From positions 1-38,715 of the forward strand of contig CAMYMO010000217.1 in assembly GCA_947259425.1 (NCBI GenBank): 38,715 nucleotides of DNA, in the 5' to 3' direction. The stretch's first letter is position 1, and each line of letters opens with the position of its first letter. Below, piece by piece: positions 308 to 30,148 of this stretch. The notes under the pieces are model-generated. The model saw only the letters and a list, made by a program, of their open reading frames with translations. It made no database searches and was not told where the DNA came from. Both the position numbers and the translations under genes were made by a program. The stretch comes from an uncultured Ectothiorhodospiraceae bacterium. Its GTDB lineage: Bacteria; Pseudomonadota; Gammaproteobacteria; UBA6429; Thiohalophilaceae.

Positions 308-667
308 TTATATCTTTGGGACGGATGCTAGATAAGCTTTTAGGTCGGCAACCCTTTGATCAGGAACATTGTCAAATGCTAGCATAAGATTAAAGGTTGA
401 TGTTGTATCATAATTACTCATATCTGTGGCAATCATGTCTTGTCGCTGGGCTAAATCTGCAGCGCCGAATGCGGACGTTGGGTCATCCAGTCCTACCTTG
501 TGGCATGACGCACAATTAGATTGATAATAGGTTGAACCATCAGCTACCAACCCCTGGGCTGGTGGTGCGACTGGAGGAGGCGGCGTTTCTTCCGAGCCAC
601 TCTCAAAGCAACTTGTGAGCGCAAGACTGAGCGTAACCATCAATGTGATTTTTGTTAGATTATTCAT
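308..667 (-). CDS. Small monoheme c-type cytochrome, predicted lipoprotein
   Basis: The ORF track gives 308..676. I prefer the ATG at 667 (MNNLTK...) because GGAAGGTG lies a few nt upstream. Lipobox L-A-L-T-S-C, a Pro-rich tether (ETPPPPVAPP), and a single CASCH heme motif. Confidence 0.8.
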   Translation of the reverse strand: MNNLTKITLMVTLSLALTSCFESGSEETPPPPVAPPAQGLVADGSTYYQSNCASCHKVGLDDPTSAFGAADLAQRQDMIATDMSNYDTTSTFNLMLAFDNVPDQRVADLKAYLASVPKI

Positions 668-726
668 AGTTATCACCTTCCTTTTAACCTTATATCAGAT
701 ATTGTGTTGTTAATATCTGAACTAGC

Positions 727-3537
727 TTAATCATCTCCATGACCATCACCGTGGTCACCACCATCATGTCCATCATTACCGTTTAAATAATTTTCCAGTG
801 CTTGTGCTTCACCATTCGTCAGTGGGATGGGCCGCATTTCAGAAACATCCAACATCGCATCCAGGATTTCGCTTAATGAAGCACCGGTGACGGCTTCTTC
901 ACTACCTCCCGTTCCTCCTGGGCCATGGCATGCCGCACATTTAATGGCATAAATTTCTTCGCCCGTGGTGGGTTGTGGTTGGCTACCTCCGCCTGAAGAC
1001 AGGAAGTCTGCAATTGCCTGGACATCGGTACCTGACAGGGTAATGCCTTGCATCTGACCAACAGATGAGAGTGCACTGTTAATTAGGCTTGAACTGACCC
1101 CCACGACGGCTCCTCCGCTACCACCGGTGCCATTGAAACCATGACAGCTCTGACAATAGGTTATATAGAGTTCCTCACCGGTAGTCGGTACTGGTGTCGT
1201 ACCACCCCCGGCCAATGCATCGGCAATGGCTTGCACTTCGGTGGTCGTTAAGGTGTTGAGCCCACCCATGCCCCCGATGTTGGCATCAATCGCCGCTTGG
1301 ATCTGCGAGGCGGTGCGGTTGAGTTTGGTACTATTGGCCAAAGCACCATGGCAGCCCGAGCAGTTATTGGTGTATAACGTTGCACCATCAACGGGAGTGG
1401 GTGGGGGAGGAGGCGTACCGCCACCGGTGGCTAAGGCATCGGCAATAGCTTGAACATTGGTTGGCGTCAGGCTACTTAGTCCGCCCATGCCACCTGTGTT
1501 CGTATCAATCGCACTCTGAATTTGTGCAGCTGTGCGATTAAGTTTGCTGCTGCTTGCTAAAGCACCGTGGCAACCTGAACAGTTGTTACCATACAACGTT
1601 GCACCATCCGTTGGCGCCGGAGCAGGTGTACCGCCTCCACCGCCTTCGCCAGAGAGATAGTCGGCGATGTCTTCGAGTTGACTGGAATTCAGAGAAATCG
1701 AGTTCATCATAGACTCTTCATCAATTGCGTCGGCGATCTCATTCGCGCTTGAACCATTTACCGCCTCATAAACTCCACCGGTTCCGCCAGGACCATGACA
1801 TGCGAGGCAATAGTTATTGTAAAGCTGCTGCCCTGTCGTGGGAGGTGGTGGAGGGGTAACTCCATTAAGGTAATCGGCAATGGCCTCAAGCTGAGCTGAG
1901 CTCAATGAGATAGTACTCATCAATGGCTCTTCAATAATGGCATCTGCAATGCTATTGGCACTGTCACCGGTCACAGCTTCGTATTGACCGCCGGTTCCGC
2001 CAGGACCATGACAAACCAGGCAATAAGAATTGTAGAGTCCTTCGCCCGTAGTGGGTTCTGGTGGTGGAGTCACGCTAACCAATGCATCAGAGATGGCCTG
2101 CACCTGGGTTGGGGTTAAGACGTTGAGTCCACCCATACCACCCGTGTTAGCATCAATCGCAGCCTGAATCTGAGTTGCGGAGCGATTCAATTTAGTGCTG
2201 GTTTCCAGCGGGCCGTGGCAGGCCGCGCAATTATTGGCATAAAGTGACTGACCATCCGTTGGTGGTGGGGGTGGAGGCGTCACGCTGACCAGCGCATCGG
2301 CGATGGCCTGCACTTGTGTTGGGCTTAAACCGCTTAGTCCACCCATACCACCTGTGTTGGCATCAATCGCACCCTGGATCTGTGCAGCTGTTCGGTTGAG
2401 TTTACTACTGCTATCCAGCGCACCGTGGCAGGCCATACAGTTGTCGTTATACAACGTAGGTCCATCCAGTTCTGGTGGTGGAGGTGGCGGTAGAACGGCG
2501 TCAATGACCACCGTGGTGCTGGCGACACCCGTGATATTGTTGGCATCCTGAACCGCAAGGGTCACCGTGTAAGCACCTGGTGTGGCATAGGTATGGCTGA
2601 TGGTCGCGATACTATCGTTCATAACGGGCGTGCCATCACCGAAATCCCAGATGTAATTGGTGATTGGGCTAACATGTGTGGATAGTGAGCCATCAAAATT
2701 AACGGGCTGACCTTCGGTACCGGTATACGGTCCACCTGGATCGGCATTGGGTCTCAGTATTCCACCCACCGTGATGTCCTGGAAGGTAGAATGGGTTAAA
2801 TTATCGCTGTCGGTAACGGTTAGCTGGACGGTATAGACACCTGCGGTGGTAAAGGTATTGATGGCTTGTGCACCAGTGGCTGTGTTGCCATCACCGAAGT
2901 CCCAGTCATATTGATTAATGACGCCATCCGGATCGAACGAGGCCGAACCGTCGAAACTGACAGTGGCATTGGCCTGAGCCGTTAATGGTGCAGTGATCAC
3001 GGCGGTCGGTGCCTGAGCGGCACCGGCTGATACGTCGACGGTATAAGCCACCGAGTCGACTTCATCGCCGGTTGTGCTGGAATCCCCATTGGTTGAGAGC
3101 CCTGCACTATATATAGTATATGTGCCTGCTGTGGTCGGTGCTTGCCAGTTAAAATCCCAGGAGACCGTACCATCGCCGGCTGCCGTTACACGTTGGTTAT
3201 GGGTCAATTCACCTGCTTGCAACTTTGTGTTGGCTAGGATGCTCATAAGTGTGCCGGCATCGGCACTAACGTCAAAACCGCCGGAATTTTGTTGTCCACC
3301 AGAGATAGTTAAGGTGTATGTGCTAATAGAGCCGGGCTGTACGGAAGTCGGGCCGGTCACATCAACAACGGGGGCGGTTCCACCTGAGTGACAGGCGACA
3401 CAGGAGTTCCCACCATTGGTGGCAGGATTAGTCGAGTAACCGTTTATTCCAGCGCTAAAACTAAAGACATTCTGACTGATAAACAGGTTAATAACAAAGA
3501 TGCCGATAGTCGCCAGTTTTATACTTTTCTTATTCAT
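727..3537 (-). CDS. Secreted 936-aa multidomain c-type cytochrome: N-terminal CxxCH + beta-rich domain, 2 PKD domains, 8 monoheme cytochrome-c domains joined by Pro/Gly linkers, His/Asp-rich tail
   Basis: Signal peptide MNKKSIKLATIGIFVINLFISQNVFSFSAG. There are nine CxxCH motifs (CVACH, CMACH, CAACH, CLVCH, CLACH, CSGCH, CSGCH, CQSCH, CAACH). Two PKD signatures are present (FDGSASFDPDG..YDWDFGDG and FDGSLS..YIWDFGDG). Linkers are PPPPPP, and the C-terminus is GNDGHDGGDHGDGHGDD. Confidence 0.9.
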   Translation of the reverse strand: MNKKSIKLATIGIFVINLFISQNVFSFSAGINGYSTNPATNGGNSCVACHSGGTAPVVDVTGPTSVQPGSISTYTLTISGGQQNSGGFDVSADAGTLMSILANTKLQAGELTHNQRVTAAGDGTVSWDFNWQAPTTAGTYTIYSAGLSTNGDSSTTGDEVDSVAYTVDVSAGAAQAPTAVITAPLTAQANATVSFDGSASFDPDGVINQYDWDFGDGNTATGAQAINTFTTAGVYTVQLTVTDSDNLTHSTFQDITVGGILRPNADPGGPYTGTEGQPVNFDGSLSTHVSPITNYIWDFGDGTPVMNDSIATISHTYATPGAYTVTLAVQDANNITGVASTTVVIDAVLPPPPPPELDGPTLYNDNCMACHGALDSSSKLNRTAAQIQGAIDANTGGMGGLSGLSPTQVQAIADALVSVTPPPPPPTDGQSLYANNCAACHGPLETSTKLNRSATQIQAAIDANTGGMGGLNVLTPTQVQAISDALVSVTPPPEPTTGEGLYNSYCLVCHGPGGTGGQYEAVTGDSANSIADAIIEEPLMSTISLSSAQLEAIADYLNGVTPPPPPTTGQQLYNNYCLACHGPGGTGGVYEAVNGSSANEIADAIDEESMMNSISLNSSQLEDIADYLSGEGGGGGTPAPAPTDGATLYGNNCSGCHGALASSSKLNRTAAQIQSAIDTNTGGMGGLSSLTPTNVQAIADALATGGGTPPPPPTPVDGATLYTNNCSGCHGALANSTKLNRTASQIQAAIDANIGGMGGLNTLTTTEVQAIADALAGGGTTPVPTTGEELYITYCQSCHGFNGTGGSGGAVVGVSSSLINSALSSVGQMQGITLSGTDVQAIADFLSSGGGSQPQPTTGEEIYAIKCAACHGPGGTGGSEEAVTGASLSEILDAMLDVSEMRPIPLTNGEAQALENYLNGNDGHDGGDHGDGHGDD

Positions 3538-4120
3538 GACACCCTCTCCTTTATTATTCCGTTGTACTGCTAGAGGATGGATCGCTGGTCATTATTAGTG
3601 CAATTTAGGATCCCAACTGGCGCTAATACTTAACGTATTTTACCATTCCTCTGTATAAATATTTAAGCTTATTAATACACTTTTTTAATTTTTAGTAACT
3701 GATTTAGATCATGTTTTTTGCGGATTTCGTCTATGCATAAATGGGTAGATAAAAGGCCATTTCTATAAAATGGAAAAAGCATAAATGTTAAATATATGAT
3801 TTTAATTAATATTACATGGCGGCTACGGTTAAATTTATGCTATAAACTTTATTTACACTATTATGCAATAGTTTAATAATCTTCACATAGATGTTTCAAG
3901 GTTTTTCACCGTGCTGAAGGGCGTTTATAAAGAACTCTAATATTCGTTGTATTGATTTCTTGAACAGTGGTAGGAGCGTCACTTAATAGAGCAAAGATAT
4001 CTATAATAGGATTGACGTGGTCATCAAAGAGGTTCGTATCAGCTCAATAAATTCCAACAAATTAGCGGCTGGAGTTAACACTCATGATATTAAAAGCGAA
4101 TTAAATTCGAGCGACTGCTT

Positions 4121-4582
4121 ATGGGGATGAGATTTCACATCGATATTGTTAGCGCAGAGTCGTCAATGTATTCTGGGCAGGCCGATCTATTGTTGGTTCC
4201 AACCATGATGGGGGAAATAGGCATTCTTGCCCGGCATGCGCCCTTGATTTCAGAATTAAAACCCGGTTTGGTTCGTATCATTCTGGATAACAAGGAAAAA
4301 TACGTTGTTTTTATCTCATCAGGTTTTATTGAAATCCAGCCACACATCGTCACGATACTAGCTGAAAAGGTAATACGCAGTGAAGAATTTGTTGCAGCCG
4401 CAGCCGATGCCGCTCGCTATATAGAAAAAGAACATGTCACGAAATCCGATCTGGCTTTTACAAAACGCAGCATCAATAGCGAGCTGGAATTACAGATTGC
4501 TTTGTATCGTACTTTAGAAGAAGTCAAAAATTCCAAGTCGGGTCAACGCAGCTGGCCACAGGATAATGAAATGCAAGAATAG
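4121..4582 (+). CDS. atpC: F1 ATP synthase epsilon-subunit homologue, stand-alone copy
   Basis: MGMRFHIDIVSAESSMYSGQADLLLVPTMMGEIGILARHAPLISELKPGLVRI... aligns residue-for-residue with the remembered E. coli AtpC N-terminus (MAMTYHLDVVSAEQQMFSG...[23 protein letters not shown]). No other atp genes occur in the window. Confidence 0.75.
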   Translation: MGMRFHIDIVSAESSMYSGQADLLLVPTMMGEIGILARHAPLISELKPGLVRIILDNKEKYVVFISSGFIEIQPHIVTILAEKVIRSEEFVAAAADAARYIEKEHVTKSDLAFTKRSINSELELQIALYRTLEEVKNSKSGQRSWPQDNEMQE

Positions 4583-5200: not shown

Positions 5201-5815
5201 TTAATGATTATTTTCTTTAAGAACTGAGACACAACGCACCAGCGAGGATAAATTTTTAACCTCCATTTTTTCCATCATATTCGCCCTGTGAATTTCAATA
5301 GTGCGTGTGCTCACATTTAATTCTGATGCAATTGTCTTATTTAATTTTCCATCGACTACGCCTTCAAGTACTTCAAGCTCTCTAGGGGTAAGAGTGTCAT
5401 GTCGTGATTTTATTTTATGGACTACCATCAACGAGTTCCTTTTTGATATATCTTGTTCAAGGGCTACGCTGACATGATCTAAAAGTAATTGATCGCTAAA
5501 TGGTTTTTGAAGGAAATCGATCGCACCGGATTTTATTGCTTTTACGGCCATCGGGATTTCACCGTGTCCGGAAATCATAATTATGGGGGGATGATAATCA
5601 AGTAATTTAAGTTGTTCCTGAAGTTCGAGGCCACTCATTCCTGGCATCCTGACATCGAGAATCAGGCAACCTTTTTGTTCAGGGTCATATTGCGCCCAAT
5701 AATCTTGTGCAGATTCAAAAGTTTGCACCCGATGGCCTACTGATTCTAACAGTAGTTTTATTGCTAGTCTGACATCGGGTTCATCATCAATGATTGTTAC
5801 GGTTATATTGTCCAT
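5201..5815 (-). CDS. FixJ/LuxR-family response regulator (REC + LuxR-type HTH)
   Basis: Receiver motifs IIDDEP...LILDVRMPGMSG...ISGHG. The C-terminal LTPRELEVLEGVVDGKLNKTIASELNVSTRTIEIHRANMMEKM is a LuxR/GerE HTH. It lies 15 nt downstream of the kinase gene. Confidence 0.9.
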   Translation of the reverse strand: MDNITVTIIDDEPDVRLAIKLLLESVGHRVQTFESAQDYWAQYDPEQKGCLILDVRMPGMSGLELQEQLKLLDYHPPIIMISGHGEIPMAVKAIKSGAIDFLQKPFSDQLLLDHVSVALEQDISKRNSLMVVHKIKSRHDTLTPRELEVLEGVVDGKLNKTIASELNVSTRTIEIHRANMMEKMEVKNLSSLVRCVSVLKENNH

Positions 5816-5830
5816 AATAGAAAACCTCGT

Positions 5831-7789
5831 TTATAAGAAAGGCAAAGAAAACTTAAACGTTGTACCTTTATTAGGAGTAGAGTCTACGTCGAGCGTACCA
5901 CTGTGATTATCTATAATGGTGTGGCAGATTGCTAACCCAATCCCTAACCCTTCAGATTTCGTTGTGGTAAAAGTATCAAAAAGTTGTTCACGAATTTTTC
6001 CAGGAACGCCCGGACCAGTATCACGCACTTCGACAGTCAAATTCTTCTTTTTATCTTTATACGCGCTAACGATAATTTCACGAACAGGTGAATCATGTCC
6101 ACATATTGCCTCGATAGCATTTCGAATCAGGTTTACCAAAACTTGTTGTATTTGTATGGCGTCGCCTGCTACGTTAGGTAGTTTTTCATTTAAATCCAAT
6201 GCGATATTTATGTCTGCATGACGTAGATCCGTGCGTAACAAACTAATCACTTCTTTTATTAAAAGAGAAATATCAATTGGAGATTTGATAGGCTCTCCTT
6301 TTCTAACAAAACTACGTACGCGTTTTATTATTTTACCAGCTTGCTCGGCATTTATTGCTATACGATTCTGTATTGATTTGTATTCGTCCCAATTGGTCGT
6401 GTCTGAATCCAACATGCGTATACTGGCTTGAGAAAAGCTCATAATAGCGGTTAATGGTTGATTTAGTTCGTGTGCTATGCCTGAGGCCATCTCTCCCATG
6501 GAGCTTAAACGACCTACGTGGGCAAGTTGTTGAATCGTATTACGGGCCTGATCTTCAGCTCGTCGTCTTTTACTAATATTTCGGCCGACAACAATAATTT
6601 CCTGGCAACGATTATCATGGCACACAACTTTAAATGACCAGATAAACCAGCACCATCCCTGAGACGTTAAAATACGCAATTCACAGGTTTGTTCCTGTTT
6701 TTTAGTGAACGCTTTTGTCCAGGTATCTTTTGCGTGCTCAACATCTTCGTTGTGTATGAGTTCAAATAGGTTGGAATTTAACAGTTCGGATTCCGGTTTA
6801 CCCAGCCTTAAACTACACGAGGGACTGGCAAACAGCATCTTACCTTTGCTATCAAATTGCATGATAAGATCGGTCTGATTTTGAACCAGCAGTCGGTATT
6901 TCTCTTCGCGTTCTTTAAGTGCCAGTTCTGCTCGCATACGCTGAAGTTCAACCGATGCCCTGGCCGCAAGTATTTCAAACACAGTACAGTCAATTCCATC
7001 AGTTGTTAGATATCGGTTATCAAGTATGGCAATATGGCCGATAACATCTTTGCCATCTGCATCATAGATAGGGAACCCATAATAACTTTCAGCAAAGCCA
7101 TCTTCTTTAGGGTATAACGTACCGAGCCGATCTTCGACAAGCACATCTTTTCTGCCATTAATGACAATGTCACAAGGGGTGCCAACTAAATCATACTCAA
7201 AGTTTTCTTCAAAATCATTTGCGCACCAATACGCTAACATTCGAACACGTGATGGAGGTTGATCCAAACATTCTGTTATAAAGGCTTTGCGGACATTCAT
7301 GTACTTGGCAAGATTTTCCATGAGTGATTTAAGGAAATCATCACCACTGTTTCCTGCTGTTGTCTGGGCGATGAAATTTAATAACTTATCGGACTTGTTT
7401 AATCGGCTATCTGTTCGGGTCAGGCAAAAAAAAGTATCTCCGTCACTATGATTCTGATAACCAATACAAATCTCGATTGTCGTCTGATCGTTGGGAAATA
7501 AGGTTTGCCTGGTATGCAATATCCATTGACCTTTATCTTTTGCGGCTTGTATCGCACTGGCCCATCGTTTAGCAGGAAGATCAGGATGTATATCGAACAC
7601 AGAAAGTGTTGCAAGAGTCTGTATATTTAATCCCAGTAATTTGCGGCCATGTGAATTTACATATTTCAGCTGTCCAGACGAATCCGTAGCGTAAAAGAGC
7701 TCAGGAACGTATTCCATTGACTGGAAAAAAGAATTTTGGTTGGAGTTTTCCTCAGCCATACTAATACTAGTGTTTTCTTTGGTTGTCAT
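5831..7789 (-). CDS. Cytoplasmic sensor histidine kinase, PAS-GAF-PAS-HisKA-HATPase architecture
   Basis: H-box SGIAHELNQPLTAI, N-box LVNLIRNAIEA, and G-boxes DTGPGV / GLGIGLAI. No TM segments are visible. The N-terminal ~400 aa have PAS/GAF-like spacing. Confidence 0.9.
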   Translation of the reverse strand: MTTKENTSISMAEENSNQNSFFQSMEYVPELFYATDSSGQLKYVNSHGRKLLGLNIQTLATLSVFDIHPDLPAKRWASAIQAAKDKGQWILHTRQTLFPNDQTTIEICIGYQNHSDGDTFFCLTRTDSRLNKSDKLLNFIAQTTAGNSGDDFLKSLMENLAKYMNVRKAFITECLDQPPSRVRMLAYWCANDFEENFEYDLVGTPCDIVINGRKDVLVEDRLGTLYPKEDGFAESYYGFPIYDADGKDVIGHIAILDNRYLTTDGIDCTVFEILAARASVELQRMRAELALKEREEKYRLLVQNQTDLIMQFDSKGKMLFASPSCSLRLGKPESELLNSNLFELIHNEDVEHAKDTWTKAFTKKQEQTCELRILTSQGWCWFIWSFKVVCHDNRCQEIIVVGRNISKRRRAEDQARNTIQQLAHVGRLSSMGEMASGIAHELNQPLTAIMSFSQASIRMLDSDTTNWDEYKSIQNRIAINAEQAGKIIKRVRSFVRKGEPIKSPIDISLLIKEVISLLRTDLRHADINIALDLNEKLPNVAGDAIQIQQVLVNLIRNAIEAICGHDSPVREIIVSAYKDKKKNLTVEVRDTGPGVPGKIREQLFDTFTTTKSEGLGIGLAICHTIIDNHSGTLDVDSTPNKGTTFKFSLPFL

Positions 7790-8001: not shown

Positions 8002-8346
8002 ATGTTTAATAAATCAAATAAAGCAGTATTTGCAGCCTCTATCGTAGGATTGTTGGCCGTACCCATCGCATCAACAAATGCAATGTTATCACAAGACAAG
8101 TCACCGTTCGCTATGACTGAGTTAAATGGTGGATATATGCAAATTGCTGACAGCAAATGCGGTGAAGGAAAGTGTGGCGGTTCCAAGAAGAAGGAACCTG
8201 AAGGCAAATGCGGTGAAGGAAAGTGTGGTGGTTCCAAGAAGAAGGAATCTGAAGGCAAATGCGGTGAAGGAAAGTGTGGCGGTTCCAAGAAAAAGGAGTC
8301 TGAAGGCAAATGCGGTGAAGGTAAATGCGGTGGTTCCAAGAAGTAA
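8002..8346 (+). CDS. HvfA/bufferin-like Cys-repeat RiPP-metallophore precursor (signal peptide + 4 x EGKCGEGKCGG)
   Basis: AGGAGA RBS at 7991-7996. Signal peptide MFNKSNKAVFAASIVGLLAVPIASTNA, then 'SPFAMTELNGGYMQ', then four KCGEGKCGGSKKKE(S/P)EG units (8 Cys). This matches my memory of the HvfA family signature (EGKCG motifs). Confidence 0.8.
   Translation: MFNKSNKAVFAASIVGLLAVPIASTNAMLSQDKSPFAMTELNGGYMQIADSKCGEGKCGGSKKKEPEGKCGEGKCGGSKKKESEGKCGEGKCGGSKKKESEGKCGEGKCGGSKK
8155..8343 (+). repeat. In-frame 51-nt tandem repeat, 3.7 copies, encoding KCGEGKCGGSKKKE(S/P)EG
   Basis: Copies at 8155-8205, 8206-8256, 8257-8307 and 8308-8343 (partial). The first three differ from each other by only 1-4 substitutions. 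Confidence 0.95.
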
Positions 8347-8365
8347 CTGGGTTTCGTCAGGGAAG

Positions 8366-8389
8366 GGAGATTGGGATGTTCCAATCTCC
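8366..8389 (+). promoter_or_regulatory. Stem-loop between precursor gene and downstream enzyme genes (possible leaky attenuator / mRNA stabiliser)
   Basis: GGAGATTGG (8366-8374) / GATGTT / CCAATCTCC (8381-8389), a perfect 9-bp stem 20 nt after the stop. No clean U-tract follows (TCAACCTCTTG). Confidence 0.4.
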
Positions 8390-8420
8390 TCAACCTCTTG
8401 TAAGTTTAATGGAGAATGAT

Positions 8421-10058
8421 ATGAATGCAGCAGAATTGTTTATCCGCTGTCTGGAAAACGAAGGTGTGACGGAAATTTTTGGTATTCCCGGAGAGGAAAA
8501 TCTTGCCGTTATGGATGCTTTATTATCGAGCCCAATTCGATTCATTACGACACGACATGAACAGGGTGCAGCGTTTATGGCCGATGTGTATGGACGTCTA
8601 ACTGGTAAGGCCGGTGTTTGTCTGGCAACATTAGGTCCCGGTGCAACGAATTTAATTACAGGTTTTGCAGATGCAAACATGGATAGGGCACCTATTGTTG
8701 CCATTGCGGGCCAAGGTGCAACGACTCGTTTGCATAAGGAAAGCCATCAAATCCTTGACTTGGTAAATTTATTTGAGCCTATATCTAAGTATTCAACGCA
8801 AATACGGTCCGGAAGAATAATCCCCGAGATCGTCCGAAAAGCGTTTAAAGATGCACAGGCTGAAAAACCAGGGGGTAGTTTTGTCGATTTTCCAGAAGAT
8901 GTGGCCGATGAAATTGTAGATGCAGAATATCTCCCCTTAAAAGTTCAAAGCCCAAAACCACCACGAGCGCCACAAGACAAACTTCAACAGGCGGCCGATT
9001 TAATTTCGAAAGCAAAATTTCCTTTAGTTATGGCTGGCAATGGAGTCATTCGTGGAAATGCAGCAGAGCAGCTTATTAAATTTTCAGAAAAATTAAAATT
9101 ACCTGTTGCCACGACCTTTATGGCAAAGGGAGTCATCCCTTTCTCGCATGAGAATTCTATCGGAACAGTCGGTTTACAAGCGAATGACTACGTGGCTTGT
9201 GGCTTTGATCGAGCGGATCTTGTGATATGTATTGGTTATGACATGGTTGAGTATCATCCCCATCTTTGGAATAAGCAACGAGACAAAAAGATAATCCATA
9301 TCGACATGATGCCTTCAGAGGTGGATGCGCATTATATATTAGAGGCGGGTGTCATCGGAAACATCGGTGATTCGTTAGACGTGATTAGTGAAACGGCCAA
9401 ACCGCAAAAAGTATTTCAAGCCAGTGGATTGCGCAAAACGATAGTTGAAGAATTTAATACTTATGCGGATGATCAAAGTTTTCCATTAAAACCTCAAAGA
9501 ATAATCTCTGATTTGAGAAAAGTTTTAAACCCCGAAGATGTCGTTATTTCTGATGTAGGTGCACACAAGATGTGGATGGCAAGAATGTACCAATGTGAAC
9601 AGCCAAATACTTGCATTATTTCAAACGGATTTGCATCAATGGGTATTGGTGTCCCCGGAGCGATCGCTGCAAAAATTGCATTCCCAGATAAAACTGCATT
9701 GACTGTTACCGGAGATGCAGGCTTTATGATGAATTCACAGGAAATTGAAACAGCGCTTCGAATTAACACACCCATGATCATATTGGTTTGGACTGATAGT
9801 GAGTATGGATTAATAAAATGGCATCAAATGCGTCATTATGGACGGGAAAGTCATATCAAATTTAATAACCCTGATTTTGTTAAATACGCAGAGAGCCTTG
9901 GGGCGAAAGGTTACCGTGTTAATTCTTCAAATGAGTTGATCCCTACATTAGAGAAGGCCATAGCAGATAACACGGTAGTTATAATTGATTGTCCAGTCGA
10001 CTATTCCGAAAATATGAAACTGACCGAAAAACTTGGCAACTTAATTTGTCCTATTTAG
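8421..10058 (+). CDS. alsS: AlsS-like (catabolic-type) acetolactate synthase / ThDP-dependent enzyme
   Basis: The track ORF starts at 8325, but that extension overlaps the upstream gene. ATG 8421 follows GGAGA (8411-8415). MNAAELFIRCLENEGVTEIFGIPGEENL..., HKESHQILD, IGYDMVEYHPHLWN, the ThDP motif GDAGFMMNSQE...N and IIDCPVDYSENMKL all parallel B. subtilis AlsS as I remember it. Confidence 0.8.
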   Translation: MNAAELFIRCLENEGVTEIFGIPGEENLAVMDALLSSPIRFITTRHEQGAAFMADVYGRLTGKAGVCLATLGPGATNLITGFADANMDRAPIVAIAGQGATTRLHKESHQILDLVNLFEPISKYSTQIRSGRIIPEIVRKAFKDAQAEKPGGSFVDFPEDVADEIVDAEYLPLKVQSPKPPRAPQDKLQQAADLISKAKFPLVMAGNGVIRGNAAEQLIKFSEKLKLPVATTFMAKGVIPFSHENSIGTVGLQANDYVACGFDRADLVICIGYDMVEYHPHLWNKQRDKKIIHIDMMPSEVDAHYILEAGVIGNIGDSLDVISETAKPQKVFQASGLRKTIVEEFNTYADDQSFPLKPQRIISDLRKVLNPEDVVISDVGAHKMWMARMYQCEQPNTCIISNGFASMGIGVPGAIAAKIAFPDKTALTVTGDAGFMMNSQEIETALRINTPMIILVWTDSEYGLIKWHQMRHYGRESHIKFNNPDFVKYAESLGAKGYRVNSSNELIPTLEKAIADNTVVIIDCPVDYSENMKLTEKLGNLICPI

Positions 10059-10067
10059 GAGCACGTG

Positions 10068-11513
10068 ATGAAATCACACTATCCACTTTTAATTAAGAAT
10101 GTAAAACATGGTGAATCTTCGCTTGAAGTGCGAACTCCATTTAGTGGTAATGTAATAGCCACATTTGAGACGGCAAATCACGATGTAGTTGAATTAGCAT
10201 TATCGACAGCTGATGAATTATTTAAAGATCGTTCGAGGTGGTTAACCGTCGAGAGGCGATTGTCAATTCTAAATAAAACAGTTCTGATAATGGAGGAACG
10301 TTTTGAACAGTTAGCACGCGAAGCTGCAGCTGAAGGTGGAAAACCTTTACAAGATTCTCGAGTTGAAGTAGATCGTGCCATAGATGGCGTTAGAACAAGT
10401 ATAGAATGTTTGCGTAGTGATGGCGGTCGTGAGATACCAATGAATAAGAATTTAGCTTCTATTAACAGACTGGCGTTTACAACATTTGAACCAATTGGAC
10501 CTGTCGTTGCAGTAAGTGCGTTTAATCATCCACTAAACCTGATTGTTCATCAAGTTGTACCCGCTATAGCGGCGGGTAATCCTGTCATAGTTAAACCAGC
10601 AGAAGATACGCCAATATCCTGTTATAACTTTATAAATATTTTACATGAGGCAGGTCTGCCAAAAGCCTGGTGTCAATCATTGATTGTCCACGATATTGAT
10701 GTGGCAACCTCATTAGTAACTGATTCTCGGGTTGGCTTTTTTAGTTTTATTGGTAGTAGTCGGATTGGCTGGATGCTCCGTTCCAAATTGGCGGCAGGAA
10801 CGCGTTGTGCACTTGAGCATGGTGGAGCAGCTCCGGTCATACTAACTGAAGATGCTAATCTCGATAAAGCCATCCCATTGTTGGCTAAAGGCGGTTTTTA
10901 TCACGCAGGACAAGTATGTGTATCTGTACAGCGGGTTTTTTGTCACAAAAATATTGCTAAGAAAGTAGCTACACGTTTAGCTGCCTATGTAGAAAAAATG
11001 AAAGTTGGTGATCCACTCGATGAAGAAACTGAAATAGGTCCATTAATTCGTACACGTGAAGTTAATCGAATACATGAGTGGGTGATTGAGGCTGGCAAAT
11101 CCGGAGCGAAAATTTATTCAGGGGGTAATCCATTATCCGAGAGTTGTTATTCACCAACCGTTATTTTTAATCCACCTCAAGAAGTGCAGGTCTCTCGATT
11201 AGAAATCTTTGGACCGGTTGTTTGTATCTACTCTTATTCAAATATAGATAGTGCAATTAAACAAGCTAATTCATTGCCGCTAGCTTTTCAGTCGGCTGTA
11301 TTTACACAGGATCTCGATAAAGCGTTATATATAAGTCAGCGGCTCAATGCCTCAGCGGTGATGATTAATGATCATACGGCGTTTCGTACTGACTGGATGC
11401 CATTTGCAGGTTTGAAAGAATCGGGGCTTGGTACTGGTGGTATCCCATATACATTTCATGAAATGCAAACGGAAAAAATGACCGTATTTAATTCAAATTC
11501 AATTTTAAGTTAG
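10068..11513 (+). CDS. NAD(P)-dependent aldehyde dehydrogenase family protein
   Basis: AGGAG at 10057-10061, ATG at 10068 (the track begins at GTG 10065). Catalytic region ...ALEHGGAAP... and ...HAGQVCVSVQRVF..., with FNHPLN and KPAEDTP motifs. Confidence 0.9.
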   Translation: MKSHYPLLIKNVKHGESSLEVRTPFSGNVIATFETANHDVVELALSTADELFKDRSRWLTVERRLSILNKTVLIMEERFEQLAREAAAEGGKPLQDSRVEVDRAIDGVRTSIECLRSDGGREIPMNKNLASINRLAFTTFEPIGPVVAVSAFNHPLNLIVHQVVPAIAAGNPVIVKPAEDTPISCYNFINILHEAGLPKAWCQSLIVHDIDVATSLVTDSRVGFFSFIGSSRIGWMLRSKLAAGTRCALEHGGAAPVILTEDANLDKAIPLLAKGGFYHAGQVCVSVQRVFCHKNIAKKVATRLAAYVEKMKVGDPLDEETEIGPLIRTREVNRIHEWVIEAGKSGAKIYSGGNPLSESCYSPTVIFNPPQEVQVSRLEIFGPVVCIYSYSNIDSAIKQANSLPLAFQSAVFTQDLDKALYISQRLNASAVMINDHTAFRTDWMPFAGLKESGLGTGGIPYTFHEMQTEKMTVFNSNSILS

Positions 11514-11524
11514 AGGATATAACC

Positions 11525-13057
11525 ATGCCAGATACAACATTAGTTATTAAGATATTTGAGATTGCAGCTTACCTGTTTATTTTTGTGCTCGGGACAGGAG
11601 TATTGGTTCTTATTGGAATGTATATTCTTGATATTAATCAAACAAAACAAGCCATTCGACGTAATTATCCGATTATTGGACGTTTTAGATATTGGTTCGA
11701 AGAAATGGGGACTTTTTTTCGCCAATACTTTTTTGCAATGGATCGCGAGGAGTTGCCTTTTAATCGTGCCGATCGATCCTGGGTTTACCGAGCAGCAAAG
11801 GATATTGGTAATACAACCGCATTCGGTTCAACCCGGGATTTACGAACAAGTGGTACGGTATTATTTTCTAATTGTCCTTACCCGACGCTTGATGAAGATG
11901 CGACACCTGTCGGAGCAATAACCATTGGCCCTTATTGTAAAAAGCCATATACAACCGATTCGCTTTTCAATATTTCAGGTATGAGTTATGGGGCGATTTC
12001 TACACCCGCTGTGCGTGCGTTATCGAATGGTGCACGTATGGCGGGCTGTTGGATGAACACGGGTGAAGGAGGGTTATCACCTTATCACCTTGAAGGTGGT
12101 GCAGATATCGTGTTTCAGATCGGAACGGCTAAATATGGCGTTCGGGATGTTAATGGTCGATTGAGCGATATAAAACTACGTGAAATCGCCGCGCAAAAAC
12201 AAGTAAAGATGTTTGAAATAAAATTAAGTCAAGGAGCTAAACCAGGGAAGGGTGGAATTTTACCAGGCGAGAAAGTAACAAAAGAAATCGCCAGAATTAG
12301 AGGGATCAAAGTAGGCGAAGATTCGATTAGTCCTAATCGACATCCCGAGATCAATAATGAAGAAGACCTGCTAAATATGATTGAGTATGTACGAAGTGTA
12401 ACTGGAAAACCGGTTGGGTTTAAAACGGTTATCGGAGCGTATGGGTGGGTAGAAAGTTTATGTAAGGCCATTTTAGAGCGGGGGATCGAAAGTGCGCCAG
12501 ATTTTATTACTATCGATAGTGCGGATGGAGGTACCGGTGCAGCTCCGATGAGTTTGATTGATTATATGGGACTGCCTATTCGTGAAAGTTTACCGTTAGT
12601 GATTAATATACTTGAACAATATGGACTTAGGGAACGTATCAAGATAGTAGCCTCAGGCAAACTCATTACACCCGCTGAGATCGCCTGGGCATTATGTATT
12701 GGCGCTCATTTTGTTACATCGGCACGTGGATTCATGTTTTCTTTAGGTTGTATCCAGGCACTACAGTGCAATAAGAATACGTGTCCAACTGGTATCACAA
12801 CTCATAATAAACGATTACAAAAAGGACTGGATCCCGATTCAAAAGCCGAAAGGGTAAAGAATTATGTAAAGAATATGGTTTACGAAGTTGGAGTTGTCGC
12901 CCATTCCTGTGGTGTAAAGGAGCCGCGTCAGTTACGTCGCTTTCACGCCAGAATAGTTACCGAAGCCGGAAACTCAGTTTCATTAGATGATCTGTACCAT
13001 CAAGAGAAAGTAACCCATGAAATAGTTTCCGGAACACAACTAAGTAAAGTGAATTAA
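11525..13057 (+). CDS. Membrane-anchored FMN-binding glutamate-synthase-domain (GltB domain-2-like) protein
   Basis: N-terminal TM helix (IFEIAAYLFIFVLGTGVLVLIGMYIL). Motifs NTGEGGLSPYH, KLSQGAKPGKGG, DSADGGTGAAP and ASGKL are typical of stand-alone glutamate-synthase-related FMN proteins. GAGGA RBS at 11513-11517. Confidence 0.85.
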   Translation: MPDTTLVIKIFEIAAYLFIFVLGTGVLVLIGMYILDINQTKQAIRRNYPIIGRFRYWFEEMGTFFRQYFFAMDREELPFNRADRSWVYRAAKDIGNTTAFGSTRDLRTSGTVLFSNCPYPTLDEDATPVGAITIGPYCKKPYTTDSLFNISGMSYGAISTPAVRALSNGARMAGCWMNTGEGGLSPYHLEGGADIVFQIGTAKYGVRDVNGRLSDIKLREIAAQKQVKMFEIKLSQGAKPGKGGILPGEKVTKEIARIRGIKVGEDSISPNRHPEINNEEDLLNMIEYVRSVTGKPVGFKTVIGAYGWVESLCKAILERGIESAPDFITIDSADGGTGAAPMSLIDYMGLPIRESLPLVINILEQYGLRERIKIVASGKLITPAEIAWALCIGAHFVTSARGFMFSLGCIQALQCNKNTCPTGITTHNKRLQKGLDPDSKAERVKNYVKNMVYEVGVVAHSCGVKEPRQLRRFHARIVTEAGNSVSLDDLYHQEKVTHEIVSGTQLSKVN

Positions 13058-13075
13058 GCTAATTTGGAGAAAGTG

Positions 13076-13540
13076 ATGAATATTGTAATAGATACAACAA
13101 AAAATGTTTTTTCAGCATTAGATGGCGTCGGTCAGCATTTATCGATGCTGGGATTACGTTTATTATTGGCATGGGAATTCTGGGAATCCGGAGTAGAGAA
13201 ATTTAACGGTGAAAACTGGTTTGCGCAAATTAAAGATGATTTCCCTTTTCCTTTTAATATTATTCCTACAGATATTAGCTGGTTTTTATCAACCTGGAGT
13301 GAATTGCTTGGAGCTGTTGCGCTTGTCATAGGTTTGGGAACACGATTTACGACTTTATCATTGATTATATTAGACATTGTTGCTTGGGTAAGTGTTCATT
13401 CCGGAAACGGCTATAATGTATGTAGTAACGGATATAAACTACCATTGATGTATATGGTGATGTTAATACCGTTATTACTATCTGGCCCAGGTAAGGCGAG
13501 TATTGATGAATGGCTGAAAAATAGATTTTTTTCAAACTAA
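13076..13540 (+). CDS. DoxX-family integral membrane protein
   Basis: GGAGA at 13066-13070, ATG at 13076 (the track begins at TTG 13064). LRLLLAWEFWESGVEKF...ELLGAVALVIGLGTRFTTLSLII...LLLSGPGKASIDEWL follows the DoxX pattern (about 4 TM). Confidence 0.8.
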   Translation: MNIVIDTTKNVFSALDGVGQHLSMLGLRLLLAWEFWESGVEKFNGENWFAQIKDDFPFPFNIIPTDISWFLSTWSELLGAVALVIGLGTRFTTLSLIILDIVAWVSVHSGNGYNVCSNGYKLPLMYMVMLIPLLLSGPGKASIDEWLKNRFFSN

Positions 13541-16622: not shown

Positions 16623-18017
16623 TTATGGCGCTTCTTGCTGGAGTTCATCTTTTGTTGTTTCACCAAGATAACTCTCATCAATCTCGACACGGTTGCGACC
16701 AAGGTGCTTGGCTTTATATAAATATTTGTCCGCTCGATCGATTAAGGATTGAATGGTTTCGCCCGGGCGGTGGATGACCAGCCCGGCTGAAAACGTCGGT
16801 AAGGGGATGGAATGATCAGCGTGTATATAGGCTGTGGAAGAAACTTTTGCCTGTATCTTATGAATGGCACGCAAGGCCCCTTCTTTATCTGTGTTGGGTA
16901 GCAATACCGCAAATTCCTCACCACCATAACGTGAGACCATATCGTAGCGGCGAAATATCGATAGAACGTCGCGAGAATATATCCGTAATATTTCATCGCC
17001 AATGGAATGGCCGTATGTGTCATTTACTTTTTTAAAAAAGTCCAGATCAATAGTGATTAAGGTTAACGGCGTTTTATCACGTTCCGAACGACCTATCTCA
17101 TCTTCTGTGCGACGTAAAAAGGCTCTTCGGTTGGGCAGGCCGGTGACATCATCGGTTAAACTGAGTACGCGTACCTGGTCAAGTTCTTCGCTGAGCTTTT
17201 GGCTGTTGCTGCCAACCATACTGAGATAGGCCTGGGTTTCATCCAGGATTAAGGCGAGGTCGATTTTGCTGCTTAACAGGCTGCGAATATTAATGATGAT
17301 TTTCCGCCGTTCCATTTCAATGGTTTCATCTTCGAACGTCAATGGCTCCAGTTCATGTAGTGTGTTTTCCAGTTGTTCACTAAACTCCTGATACTGGGTC
17401 GCGGAGGTATGAATTTTATCTGTTAATATGGATTCCAGGTGTTGAATTTCCTGATAGTGCTTATTCAATCGTTGGCGAAACAGTGAGTCCACTCGCATTT
17501 CAACCGAGGGGCTTGTCTCGACATCCTGTTCTGTTTCAGTTGCTTGCGGAAAATGGGGTTGTTGTATTTGTGCGGTCGACTCAAAATCTTCCATTCGTAA
17601 AACGGGTGGCTCATCACCCAGCAATGGTTTGAGTGCCTCTCGAATCAACTCTTCATCGGGCTCGATCAATTTCTCGGTTATATTGGTTATATTCTTTATA
17701 TACGCATGCAAAACGGCGAGTTCATTTAATGTAATAGGGGGCTGCAAACGCTTTTGGACCAGTTTTAGTTCGAGGTAAAGCAAGGAGTTTGTCGGCAGAT
17801 GTTTACGATAGCTTTCTAAAATGACATGCAAAATCGCCGCGTACCCATAGGCGATTTTATTTTGATTTGAAGTTAAATTTCTTAAGGCGAGCTGCACTTG
17901 TTGATAGATAACCTGACCCTGCGCCGTAGTTTTCAGCGCATCGATTATCGACAATATGCCACCACCCAACTCAGAATCTAAAATTGGATATTTTTCTTTA
18001 CCTGTCTTTGCATCCAT
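16623..18017 (-). CDS. Diguanylate cyclase (GGDEF domain, GGEEF active site) with long helical N-terminal region
   Basis: DDVTGLPNRRAF...DLDFFKKVNDTYGH..GD...RYGGEEFAVLLPNT...KAKHLGRNRV. Confidence 0.9.
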   Translation of the reverse strand: MDAKTGKEKYPILDSELGGGILSIIDALKTTAQGQVIYQQVQLALRNLTSNQNKIAYGYAAILHVILESYRKHLPTNSLLYLELKLVQKRLQPPITLNELAVLHAYIKNITNITEKLIEPDEELIREALKPLLGDEPPVLRMEDFESTAQIQQPHFPQATETEQDVETSPSVEMRVDSLFRQRLNKHYQEIQHLESILTDKIHTSATQYQEFSEQLENTLHELEPLTFEDETIEMERRKIIINIRSLLSSKIDLALILDETQAYLSMVGSNSQKLSEELDQVRVLSLTDDVTGLPNRRAFLRRTEDEIGRSERDKTPLTLITIDLDFFKKVNDTYGHSIGDEILRIYSRDVLSIFRRYDMVSRYGGEEFAVLLPNTDKEGALRAIHKIQAKVSSTAYIHADHSIPLPTFSAGLVIHRPGETIQSLIDRADKYLYKAKHLGRNRVEIDESYLGETTKDELQQEAP

Positions 18018-19375: not shown

Positions 19376-19837
19376 ATGGATGTCATCTCTACAGAGCTAT
19401 TTTATTCCCGCACTCAGCGCCAGCTTGGTGCCTGGATGATTTTGTTATTAGGGCTGTTTTCCGTTCGGGTTGTTGTCCAACTTCAGGTTCTATCAAACCC
19501 AATCACTTATTTACCGGAGTTTGAAGATTGGTACAGTGCTGTTATTCCCTACCAGCATTTGTTGATCAGCCAGGCGGTGATACTGGCGGGAGGCTGGGTT
19601 TATGTCTGGCGTTTGTTTAATACACGGGTTGTGCCTAATCCACGGTTAGGTAGGGCATTGTATTTTATCGGTTGGATCTATTGGTCTGTCATGTTTATCC
19701 GATTGATTTTGGGTTTTACCTTATTGTCTGATGTTCACTGGTTTGCCCAGGAATTACCCGCGCTGTTTCATTTACTGCTTGCCAACATATTGATGTTAGT
19801 GGGTCAGTATCATCGTGGAAATTGGCCTAGATCATGA
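19376..19837 (+). CDS. Hypothetical polytopic membrane protein (about 4 TM)
   Basis: Hydrophobic segments are visible in the translation. Its stop overlaps the next start (ATGA at 19834-19837). Confidence 0.6.
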   Translation: MDVISTELFYSRTQRQLGAWMILLLGLFSVRVVVQLQVLSNPITYLPEFEDWYSAVIPYQHLLISQAVILAGGWVYVWRLFNTRVVPNPRLGRALYFIGWIYWSVMFIRLILGFTLLSDVHWFAQELPALFHLLLANILMLVGQYHRGNWPRS

Positions 19838-22422: not shown

Positions 22423-23509
22423 AGATATAGAGTTTAAAGAGCTTAATATACCGTTTAATACGGCTTTTACTCATGCATCGGCATCTCGTCATTCAACCCA
22501 GACTATTTGGGTGAAAATTACAACAACTTGTGGTTTAACGGGATATGGCGAGGGATGTCCTCGTGAATACGTAACCGGTGAGTCACTTGAGTCGGCGCTG
22601 AGATTTATTGCCGACCAGAAAAAGGTTGTACTGGAGGACATACATGACTTGTCAACACTAACTGATTGGGTTAATGAAAATGAAAAATTAATCGACTCTA
22701 ATCCGGCTGCCTGGTGTGCAATTGAGTTAGCGCTGTTAGATATCATCGCACAAAATGAATATTGTAGTATCGAGAACTTATTGGATGTGCCGATTATTCG
22801 AGAAAGTTTTACATATACTGCTGTACTGGGTAATAACAAATTTTCAGCTTTTAAGCGCCAAGCCCTTCAGTATAAAAAGTTAGGGTTTCTGGACTTCAAA
22901 ATAAAATTATCGGGCAATTTGAAAGAAGATACAGAAAAACTGGACTTTTTATCAAAGTCACACAGTGCTGTTAGAATTCGTGTTGATGCCAATAATTTAT
23001 GGAAAAATAAAGACGAGGTAGTCGAGTATGTGTGTGAACTCAACAGCCCTATTTTTGCGATAGAAGAACCGATTGATCCTGAACAGTATGAAGATCTACA
23101 GGCAATATCGCGATCGCTGGCTATACCGATCATATTGGATGAAAGTTTACGAAGGAGATCACAGTTAGACTATGTTAAAAAAAATCCGTCGAACTGGATA
23201 TTAAATGTCCGAGTTTCAAAAATGGGCGGGCTGATACGATCCCTAAAGGTAATACAGGAAGCGCGCAAACATCGTCTTCCATTAATAGTTGGTGCTCATG
23301 TTGGCGAAACCAGCTTGTTAACCAGAGCAGGTTTCGTTATTGCCCAGGCAGCACATGATTCACTATTGGCACATGAAGGTGGGTTCGGTCGCTACCTGTT
23401 GAAAGAGGATGTATGTGATGAGTCTCTTATGTTTGGTCGTAATGGAAAAATTCAATATTCACTCGATAAATTGTCCAGTCCTGGATTTGGATTAGCCATC
23501 AATAGTTAG
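22409..23509 (+). CDS. Enolase-superfamily enzyme, muconate-lactonizing-enzyme subgroup (dipeptide epimerase / N-acyl-amino-acid racemase-like)
   Basis: I prefer ATG 22409 (MLQIKDIEFKELNIPF...), which overlaps the upstream stop by 14 nt. The track starts at TTG 22379. KxK motif FKIKL, metal ligands in RVDANN / IEEP / ILDES, and a second catalytic Lys in NVRVSKMGG. Confidence 0.8.
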   Translation: MLQIKDIEFKELNIPFNTAFTHASASRHSTQTIWVKITTTCGLTGYGEGCPREYVTGESLESALRFIADQKKVVLEDIHDLSTLTDWVNENEKLIDSNPAAWCAIELALLDIIAQNEYCSIENLLDVPIIRESFTYTAVLGNNKFSAFKRQALQYKKLGFLDFKIKLSGNLKEDTEKLDFLSKSHSAVRIRVDANNLWKNKDEVVEYVCELNSPIFAIEEPIDPEQYEDLQAISRSLAIPIILDESLRRRSQLDYVKKNPSNWILNVRVSKMGGLIRSLKVIQEARKHRLPLIVGAHVGETSLLTRAGFVIAQAAHDSLLAHEGGFGRYLLKEDVCDESLMFGRNGKIQYSLDKLSSPGFGLAINS

Positions 23510-29711: not shown

Positions 29712-30148
29712 GTGTCTTATATTTAGACTAACCGTTTCGCATATCAGTTTCATTCAAATTTATAGATTACGATTAGCTAAATAATTGTTTGCATTCACCT
29801 TATTTGTGGATATACAAGTACCGTGATTATTAAATCAGTGTGAGTATATTTATTGAATTCGTCCCTCTGTCTAATTCAACTTGCTATTATTAAACAGGGT
29901 AAAAGGATTTGAGCGGGGGGTGTTATCGTTACTTTATTCCGTATTTTATATAGGGTGAAGATCAACCTATTGTATTCGGCGAGGTTTATTGTCTTAGTTA
30001 TTTTTGGAATAAAAGTAAGGTTACGATAGTCATAATGGAAGATGCAGGCAGATATATAATAAGTAAAACTTTTTCAAAAATGACACTGTTTTCATTAGGG
30101 GATACCTTCTTGTTTAATCAGCGTTTAGGCTGCCTGCCTGACCAGGTT

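Follow-up and report, generated by a model that had tools for sequence, protein, structure and literature searches.

The 38,715-nucleotide contig CAMYMO010000217.1 of assembly GCA_947259425.1 (hereafter the window), from an uncultured Ectothiorhodospiraceae bacterium, carries close to its beginning a gene for a predicted secreted nine-heme protein of 936 amino acids (aa), referred to below as the string gene (Table 1). The minus strand of this interval is an unbroken 936-aa frame opening with ATG, and translation of the plus strand is riddled with stops. An initial annotation, which had left the strand unstated, listed nine CxxCH heme-binding motifs; the minus-strand frame has them at exactly the residues listed, starting at Cys46, 367, 437, 506, 577, 653, 726, 795 and 867. 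The nine motifs take up all 18 cysteines of the protein; given its composition, chance alone would yield 0.006 CxxCH motifs. The first cysteine being residue 46, the N-terminal signal peptide is not followed by a lipobox cysteine. The mature protein is strongly acidic, with a net charge of about -71 and only 13 lysines and arginines.

A Pfam scan identified eight Cytochrome_CBB3 stretches (PF13442, E 4e-62), with one CxxCH in each, and two PKD_4 stretches, in agreement with the eight monoheme class-I-like domains and the two PKD domains of the initial annotation. The cytochrome domains, about 60-65 aa apiece, occupy residues 347-919 and belong to two types arranged in the order AABBAABB. Type-A domains (d1, d2, d5 and d6) are 64-79% identical to each other and have a GGMGG motif in common; their predicted heme-ligating methionines are M398, M468 (in the GGMGG motif), M684 and M757, respectively. 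Type-B domains (d3, d4, d7 and d8) are characterized by the sequence CHGPGGTGG and by a methionine about 35 residues past the histidine, the predicted ligands being M540, M610/611, M829 and M901. When compared by sequence with proteins of known structure, type A matches two PDB entries annotated as "lipoprotein cytochrome c", 8QJ6 at E 4.4e-17 and 8QJG at E 9.8e-16. Type B has no close solved relative in PDB, giving weak N-terminal-helix matches to CcoP and cytochrome cy. Identification of the protein as CcoP of a cbb3 oxidase was rejected (TIGR00782, 93 bits versus 180), and no oxidase genes occur in the window.

Table 1. Features of the string gene and of its immediate surroundings. Positions are those of the window; residue numbers are those of the 936-aa protein. 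CAV, choice-of-anchor V; Ig, immunoglobulin.
Feature	Position	Strand	Basis or remark
Whole gene, 936 aa, nine-heme, predicted secreted	727..3537	minus	Open reading frame list and translation; stop codon 727-729
Sec-type signal peptide, residues 1-26, MNKKSIKLATIGIFVINLFISQNVFS	3460..3537	minus	Read from sequence; cleavage site inferred
CAV domain, residues 27-172, Ig-like beta-sandwich with one CxxCH	3022..3459	minus	NF041895 match
Two PKD domains, residues 173-258 and 259-346	2500..3021	minus	PKD_4, E 1.6e-40
Cytochrome domains d1, d2, type A (PgcA-like); CxxCH C367, C437	2077..2466	minus	Domain alignment
Cytochrome domains d3, d4, type B (CHGPGGTGG...LMxxISL); CxxCH C506, C577	1651..2049	minus	Domain alignment
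Cytochrome domains d5, d6, type A (PgcA-like); CxxCH C653, C726	1210..1608	minus	PDB match and identity matrix
Cytochrome domains d7, d8, divergent type B; CxxCH C795, C867	781..1182	minus	Domain alignment
C-terminal tail, low-complexity, acidic and His-rich, NGNDGHDGGDHGDGHGDD	730..780	minus	No hydrophobic anchor
Monoheme c-type cytochrome lipoprotein, lipobox LTSC	308..676	minus	Pfam Cytochrom_C/CBB3; likely ATG 667
Start of MtrA/DmsE-family decaheme gene, first 76 codons, ends at contig edge	1..230	minus	phmmer
Intergenic region, ~580 bp, AT-rich, presumed promoter	3538..4120	unstranded	Upstream of string gene

Runs of five to six prolines or three to five glycines separate all of the cytochrome domains, as the initial annotation had it when describing PPPPPP and GGGGG linkers: PPPPPP at 350 and 421, PPP at 491, PPPPP at 562 and 709, GGGGG at 632, and GGG at 705, 777 and 849. 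The linkers measure 8-14 residues. In a full-length AlphaFold2 (AF2) model built from a 29-sequence alignment, PKD and cytochrome domains reach a predicted local distance difference test score (pLDDT) of 70-90. Values fall below 50 at residues 350-353, 420-426, 489-493, 561-564, 631-642, 708-715, 779-782 and 921-936, that is, at seven of the eight junctions from the second PKD domain through d8 plus the C-terminal tail; at the d7-d8 linker (849-857), the 10-residue mean pLDDT dips only to 62. The predicted template-modelling score (pTM) of the whole is 0.27, implying no defined global arrangement. This pattern, obtained with a model from which heme is absent, is as expected for beads on a string, and supports the initial reading of monoheme class-I-like domains strung on flexible linkers. 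The domain copies are just 63-75% identical in DNA. The repeats are therefore old and maintained, and a recent repeat expansion was rejected.

A protein search identified about 40 metagenomic homologues of the same build, 480-1,200 aa in length, mostly unnamed or labelled "c-type cytochrome" or "PKD domain-containing". The family follows the grammar N(CAV)-PKD(1-2)-A(n)-B(1-2)-A(2-3)-B(1-2). The number of cytochrome domains ranges from 3 to 12, and d8 corresponds to the most conserved terminal domain. A distal methionine is present in each of the 311 domains classified as type A or B whose sequence is complete (41 homologues); in every domain missed by the methionine pattern, the residue is displaced by 1-2 positions. 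The closest relatives, 69% identical in the N-terminal domain, are found in metagenome-assembled genomes (MAGs) labelled Ectothiorhodospiraceae or Acidiferrobacterales; further labels among the closest MAGs are Acidiferrobacteraceae, Thioalkalispiraceae and Thiohalomonadales. Since some 40 homologues retain the architecture, the gene is a real, conserved gene for a nine-heme string protein. Apart from the repetitive, low-complexity linkers, nothing speaks for a chance reading frame or for a decaying repeat protein devoid of function. Against it, the 936 codons are intact, the homologues keep heme motifs, methionine ligands and domain grammar (N-PKD2-A(n)-B-A-B), the repeat copies have been maintained over a long time and synteny is kept. 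With a vanishingly small probability left to it, this explanation is ruled out by the conservation data.

The N-terminal module, which the initial annotation had described as a heme plus a beta-rich region, is a choice-of-anchor V (CAV) domain. The NCBIfam profile NF041895 matches residues 18-161 with 142.1 bits (cutoff 42) and aligns over 3-145 of its 150 positions; the N-terminal 145 residues are thus a full-length member of this domain family. The CxxCH of the domain comprises C46, C49 and H50 (nt 3388-3402). An AF2 model of the domain, from an 18-sequence alignment, is a nine-strand Ig-like sandwich (pLDDT 82, pTM 0.72) with the CxxCH on an N-terminal arm of lower prediction quality. Foldseek comparison of this model with PDB returned generic Ig-like folds only (best SoxYZ, E 6e-4, TM ~0.4-0.57), and a specific structural relative was rejected. 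In an alignment of 83 CAV domains from 80 genomes, CxxCH is conserved in 81-83 of the 83 and F129, W131 and P134 are likewise essentially invariant. Position 113 is a histidine in 56/83 domains and invariably so within close homologues of the 936-aa protein. His113 is likely the sixth ligand of the CAV heme, making H50 and H113 a candidate bis-His pair.

The CAV family is represented by 4,504 cluster representatives at E<=1e-3 (clusters at 50% identity). The match starts no more than about 135 residues from the N-terminus in 150/150 matches listed. In 115 of the 146 top representatives, the CAV heme is the sole heme and no cytochrome string is present. Relatives differ in the way they end (80 loci). 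Those from Bacteroidota have C-terminal tails of the type IX secretion system (T9SS; TIGR04183 confirmed for locus L047), those from Myxococcota and Gammaproteobacteria a hydrophobic stretch followed by an Arg-rich, CTERM-type tail (PEP-, MYXO- or GlyGly-CTERM-like), and those from Acidimicrobiia a C-terminal transmembrane (TM) helix. Judged from these predicted anchors, CAV is a surface-display module, and it appears to define a large family of surface heme domains. The 936-aa protein does not belong to the MXAN_6652 equivalog family (NF041894), scoring 120.5 bits versus a cutoff of 200; members of that family have a MYXO-CTERM anchor, whereas the 936-aa protein has neither this anchor nor a hydrophobic C-terminus. 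A literature search for the choice-of-anchor V family found no paper.

In the Acidimicrobiia relatives, the order is CAV-PKD-cytochromes-TM anchor. As the TM anchor follows the cytochromes, the latter are membrane-proximal and CAV distal. One such locus, L026 (Acidimicrobiales), encodes at 9920-13101 a CAV-PKD-3 cytochrome-TM protein and then another secreted protein, in which two cytochrome c domains are combined with a Big_9/cadherin-like Ig domain; the pair could possibly be a two-protein, cell-wall-spanning system. Genes for a LuxR-type regulator and a kinase lie directly upstream of the CAV-PKD-cytochrome gene (7596-9697 of L026).

Downstream from the string gene, on the same strand and after 50 bp, lies the monoheme lipoprotein gene. 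Its product can be viewed as a "tethered bead", in which the lipobox LTSC is followed by the Pro-rich segment SEETPPPPVAPPAQG and this by one class-I domain. The monoheme reading frame is kept at the same position in 10 related loci. PDB matches of the lipoprotein are weak (cytochrome c6, and PgcA domain III with E 0.012). Equating it with MtoD was rejected, no sequence match to any MtoD structure being found. The next gene, truncated by the contig edge, matches an MtrA-like protein encoded at the related locus L001 (phmmer, E 5.9e-28). The latter is a 319-aa decaheme protein with 299 bits to TIGR03508 (DmsE family; cutoff 192) and E 7e-94 to chain A of PDB 6R2Q, the Mtr complex of Shewanella baltica. 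In related loci, it is followed by the gene for a porin of about 700 aa (TIGR03509, MtrB/PioB, 383 bits versus 240; 6R2Q chain B, E 1e-67). Two further cytochrome genes are oriented divergently: a PdsA-like diheme (162 bits, under its cutoff of 330) and a CymA-type tetraheme, just under the NapC/NirT cutoff (306.5 bits versus 310.6). Five distinct loci have the complete series string > monoheme lipoprotein > MtrA-like > MtrB-like along with the divergent PdsA-like and CymA/NapC-like genes; in three additional loci the same order is followed until broken off by contig ends. Within 10 kb in the related MtrAB loci, no gene for an MtrC homologue is present. The start of mtrA in the window, together with complete mtrA and mtrB genes in related loci, places the string gene in an MtrAB-type porin-cytochrome cluster. 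Thus, on both points for which the initial annotation had looked to homologues, an answer was obtained: the architecture is conserved in about 40 metagenomic proteins, and MtrA/MtrB genes accompany related loci. We judge it very probable that the protein transfers electrons as a string and is linked in function to the MtrAB cluster.

Linkage to mtrA goes along with the nature of the C-terminus. In 9/9 distinct MtrA-linked loci, the string protein lacks a C-terminal anchor, whereas none of 14 anchored multi-heme relatives (those with a hydrophobic C-terminus) has MtrA/B genes in the sequenced flank. In this count, locus L011 has neither anchor nor MtrAB, and two loci with too little flank were set aside. 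The distribution suggests that binding to the conduit takes over from the C-terminal anchor. C-termini of the MtrAB-linked proteins are low-complexity, rich in Gly, Asp, His, Tyr and Ser, and usually end in Asp or Asn (e.g., GHDGGDHGDGHGDD, GGHGGHGGHD or poly-Asp); such tails might have a metal-binding or docking role. Among anchored relatives, the CAV-PKD-cytochrome strings of the gammaproteobacterial MAG loci L017 and L030 have 11-12 hemes and a PEP-CTERM-like anchor. They lie within large clusters of multiheme cytochromes (7, 8, 11, 15, 18 and 21 CxxCH) that include one 798-aa protein with MtrC/MtrF-like domains.

We regard as probable, though well short of assured, that an MtrAB conduit devoid of MtrC has the string protein as its extracellular partner. 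Under this model, the protein would be exported to the cell exterior and would fill the place of MtrC beside the MtrA/MtrB conduit encoded just downstream. Its C-terminal part would lie near the mouth of MtrAB, possibly with help from the Gly/Asp/His tail or from the lipid-anchored monoheme protein. Electrons would pass from bead to bead through transient collisions of tethered neighbours, not along a fixed heme stack, with the CxxCH histidine and the conserved methionine serving as heme ligands in the eight beads and the PKD domains serving as spacers. The CAV heme, probably bis-His, would provide the distal contact for a mineral or another external redox partner. The polarity, with CAV distal, is carried over by analogy from the Acidimicrobiia proteins. 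Fully stretched, the string might span about 50 nm, our estimate from ~2.5 nm per domain plus linkers of 8-14 residues. The extracellular or periplasm-spanning electron tether guessed at in the initial annotation is in line, by analogy, with the experiments on PgcA (PMC10570954, PMC11520253) and with the MtrA/MtrB linkage. An exterior location is favoured by the anchors of CAV relatives, the PKD domains, the mtrC position of the gene, the anchor dichotomy and the polarity in Acidimicrobiia.

A number of points weigh against the model. For export, the protein shows nothing beyond a plain Sec signal: no sequence is recognisable as directing it across the outer membrane or anchoring it there, the lipobox that PgcA and MtrC possess is missing, and the window contains no genes for type II secretion. 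Class-I c domains are typically periplasmic. In the window itself, the MtrA-like gene is cut off after its first 76 codons, and the anchor-less relative at L011 has no MtrAB within 8.8 kb. In the CAV domain, the heme-binding segment is poorly predicted, AF2 modelling proteins without heme, and a glutamine replaces His113 in 20 of the 83 aligned domains. Finally, since the linkers are much shorter than the (PT)14 of PgcA, the dynamics may differ.

Some of these points would equally suit a string confined to the periplasm, where tethered diffusion would carry electrons across the gap between the CymA/NapC-type quinol dehydrogenase of the inner membrane and MtrA. The plain Sec signal, with neither lipobox nor anchor, and the class-I type of the domains (families such as CcoP or c550/c551) fit such a bridge, and an extracellular cytochrome does not usually figure in descriptions of MtoAB/PioAB-type systems. 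Periplasmic bridging is also physically possible, given that a PgcA mutant trapped in the periplasm can stand in for the Ppc periplasmic carriers (cited in PMC11520253). We nonetheless hold this arrangement to be unlikely. Both a PdsA-like diheme shuttle of the periplasm and the small monoheme lipoprotein are already encoded in the clusters, so that it is the extracellular role that stands vacant. In other proteins, CAV domains are accompanied by surface-sorting signals of the T9SS or CTERM kind. PKD domains characteristically occur in secreted and extracellular proteins; those of the string protein match the PKD domains of collagenase and endoglucanase in PDB. In addition, the estimated extended length exceeds the width of the periplasm, and the gene occupies the mtrC position.

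Alternatively, the CAV heme could be catalytic or substrate-binding, the string merely wiring CAV to the cell, as in a surface enzyme oxidising a soluble reductant or in an adhesin binding a polymer or mineral through its PKD domains. The size of the CAV family and the preponderance of single-heme members without a string would fit this explanation, as would the frequent involvement of PKD domains in binding; moreover, the alternation of His and Gln at the distal position is compatible with an open or exchangeable site in some members. However, no catalytic family was matched, the fold search gave only generic Ig-like folds, and the presence of His113, invariant in close homologues, favours a six-coordinate electron-transfer heme. 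We judge this alternative quite improbable; it overlaps with the MtrAB-partner model rather than excluding it.

As to the direction of electron flow through an extracellular string coupled to MtrAB, we lean slightly to uptake, given that the labels of the closest genomes point to marine Gammaproteobacteria of the sulfur-oxidiser type; electrons may also be able to flow either way. In PgcA, an acidic residue at His+7 (Glu281/Asp372) makes a hydrogen bond to the proximal histidine. In the alignments with the string protein, this residue is Ser or Thr, which, along with the lineage labels, gives a weak hint of higher potentials and electron uptake.

The remainder of the window contains several features of note. 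The stretch separating the monoheme gene from the mtrA-like start contains a GC-rich hairpin (GCCCGGT-TTCC-ACCGGGC, 255-272), which lacks a U-run on the coding strand and may be an intra-operon mRNA processing or stability element. In the ~580 bp upstream of the string gene, Rfam gave no match at the gathering threshold or at E<=1 and no riboswitch was found; a riboswitch of the PgcA type was therefore rejected. A promoter and terminator scan of the upstream sequence did no better than on shuffled sequence, except for one good hairpin (4636-4611). This terminator-like element insulates the string gene from upstream two-component genes on the same strand (5201-7789, minus), which encode a NarL/LuxR-type response regulator and a PAS histidine kinase. 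An unannotated 126-aa open reading frame, besides the hairpin, occupies the space between these genes and the string gene. Divergent from the cytochrome operon is a stand-alone gene for an ATP synthase epsilon-like protein (4121-4582, plus; PF02823, E 5e-26), with no other atp genes nearby. Further away, genes for a thiamine-pyrophosphate-dependent enzyme, an aldehyde dehydrogenase, a glutamate-synthase FMN-domain protein and DoxX form a cluster (8325-13540, plus), which is probably an operon of catabolic or redox function with no relation to the string gene. At 19834-22422 (plus), an 862-aa fusion joins a fatty-acid hydroxylase domain to a complete GH3 (acyl-adenylate-forming) enzyme; its 3′ end overlaps by 44 bp an enolase-superfamily (MR_MLE) gene (22379-23509). 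Three proteins of cyclic di-GMP turnover are encoded in the 38 kb, namely GGDEF (16623-18017, minus), REC-PAS-GGDEF-EAL (33397-35580, plus) and GGDEF-EAL (36843-38693, minus), as well as a hybrid sensor kinase with two SBP_bac_3 domains (30035-33019).

Of the systems described so far, the one closest to the string protein is PgcA (GSU1761; PDB 8QJ6, 8QJG and 8QK0) of Geobacter sulfurreducens, an extracellular tri-heme cytochrome required for the reduction of Fe(III) and Mn(IV) oxides (PMC5732950). The two structures matched by type A, 8QJ6 and 8QJG, are PgcA domains I and II (PMC11520253). PgcA consists of three monoheme domains on (PT)n linkers that tumble independently and span up to 180 Å (PMC11520253), their potentials being -48, -65 and -106 mV (PMC10570954). 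Its His-His domain III is the mineral reductase, recharged from the His-Met domains I and II (PMC11520253). This "tethered diffusion" is backed by small-angle X-ray scattering, nuclear magnetic resonance and voltammetry (PMC11520253, PMC10570954), and Fernandes et al. introduced in 2023 the class name "microbial heme-tethered redox strings", with a "beads-on-a-string arrangement" (PMC10570954). The statement in the initial annotation that the protein belongs to no characterised family therefore holds in part. It falls short in that type-A matches are PgcA domains I and II, so that the architecture belongs to a class already characterised and named in 2023; it stands in that the exact architecture was absent from the literature searched.

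Domains I and II of PgcA share about 55% identity with d1, d2, d5 and d6 (33-36 identities over ~60 residues), including a GGMG methionine-ligand motif. In both proteins, monoheme c-type domains are parted by Pro-rich low-complexity linkers and one terminal domain has a different ligation, probably His-His, this domain being C-terminal in PgcA and, as a candidate, N-terminal in the 936-aa protein. The features of the class that are found here are the presence of two or more monoheme domains, linkers that are unstructured in the model, and the homology of type A to PgcA; the (PT)n/(PA)n linkers of ~28 residues and the lipobox with a processed secretion domain are not. The differences are several. 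PgcA has three cytochrome domains and three hemes as compared with eight tethered domains and nine hemes; its linkers are (PT)14 or (PT)n/(PA)n of ~28 residues instead of 8-14 residues with P5-6 or G3-5; and its N-terminus has a lipobox and a cleavable secretion domain where the 936-aa protein has the CAV heme domain and two PKD domains. Type B is a second kind of domain, not matched by the PgcA structures. Furthermore, the 936-aa protein is encoded beside mtrA/mtrB in a gammaproteobacterial lineage, unlike PgcA, and the cyclic-dinucleotide riboswitch of PgcA has no counterpart upstream of the string gene. On sequence grounds, the 936-aa protein is a larger, differently built relative of PgcA within the heme-tethered string concept. 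Tethered-diffusion cytochromes were defined in 2023-24 from one protein, Geobacter PgcA. The string family would indicate that the tethered principle is used well outside Desulfuromonadia and on a larger scale (8-12 tethered heme domains), in modular combination with PKD spacers and a distinct terminal heme domain.

With respect to MtrC/OmcA (PDB 6R2Q), to which the string protein shows no homology, the string gene has an mtrC-like position, immediately upstream of mtrA-mtrB with one small cytochrome gene between, and the presumed role, at the extracellular end of the conduit, would be the same. Membership in the MtrC/OmcA family was rejected (PF22113, 22.5 bits versus a cutoff of 30, with 0 accepted stretches). 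MtrC/OmcA proteins have ten closely spaced CxxCH motifs and a lipobox, whereas in the 936-aa protein the hemes are spaced by ~70 residues, the lipobox is missing and the fold is another. The string loci resemble MtoAB/MtoD/CymA of Sideroxydans and PioAB in lacking MtrC and in combining a decaheme of the MtrA family with an MtrB/PioB porin, a CymA-type tetraheme and a small monoheme cytochrome. The MtoAB/PioAB clusters, unlike the string loci, are described without a large extracellular cytochrome. A further difference is the extra diheme of the string loci, which is PdsA-like, as it is in Mtr clusters of Aeromonas and Vibrio. The name MtoC was rejected for the 936-aa protein, since MtoC is a CbcL/MtrH-type inner-membrane protein.

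The string protein is thus a concrete candidate for the extracellular part that MtrAB/MtoAB conduits without MtrC are missing, and bears on how such conduits of Fe(II)- or mineral-oxidising bacteria reach solid substrates. The correlation between anchor type and MtrAB linkage provides a testable docking hypothesis. A broader proposal, which we advance tentatively and consider rather doubtful, is that MtrC-less MtrAB/MtoAB conduits of marine sulfur- and iron-cycling Gammaproteobacteria use as extracellular arm an unanchored, non-homologous string of 9-13 hemes that docks on the conduit and reaches perhaps 50 nm out to solid electron partners, and that the CAV tip represents an unrecognised, very widespread family of surface monoheme Ig-like redox modules. 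If this were true, the CAV family (~4,500 clusters) would supply redox modules, exported via T9SS, CTERM sorting or TM anchors, to Bacteroidota, Myxococcota, Acidobacteriota, Acidimicrobiia and other groups. A literature search for a lipobox-less protein joining a CAV heme domain, two PKD domains and eight cytochromes, linked to MtrAB, did not find one, nor was the architecture found in searches on PKD domains with MtoAB/MtrAB and on MtoAB in Acidiferrobacterales. What appears to be new, with no description of it found in the literature searched, is the number of beads (eight here, up to 12 in homologues), the N-terminus made of CAV and PKD domains, the type-B cytochrome domain and the linkage to MtrAB.

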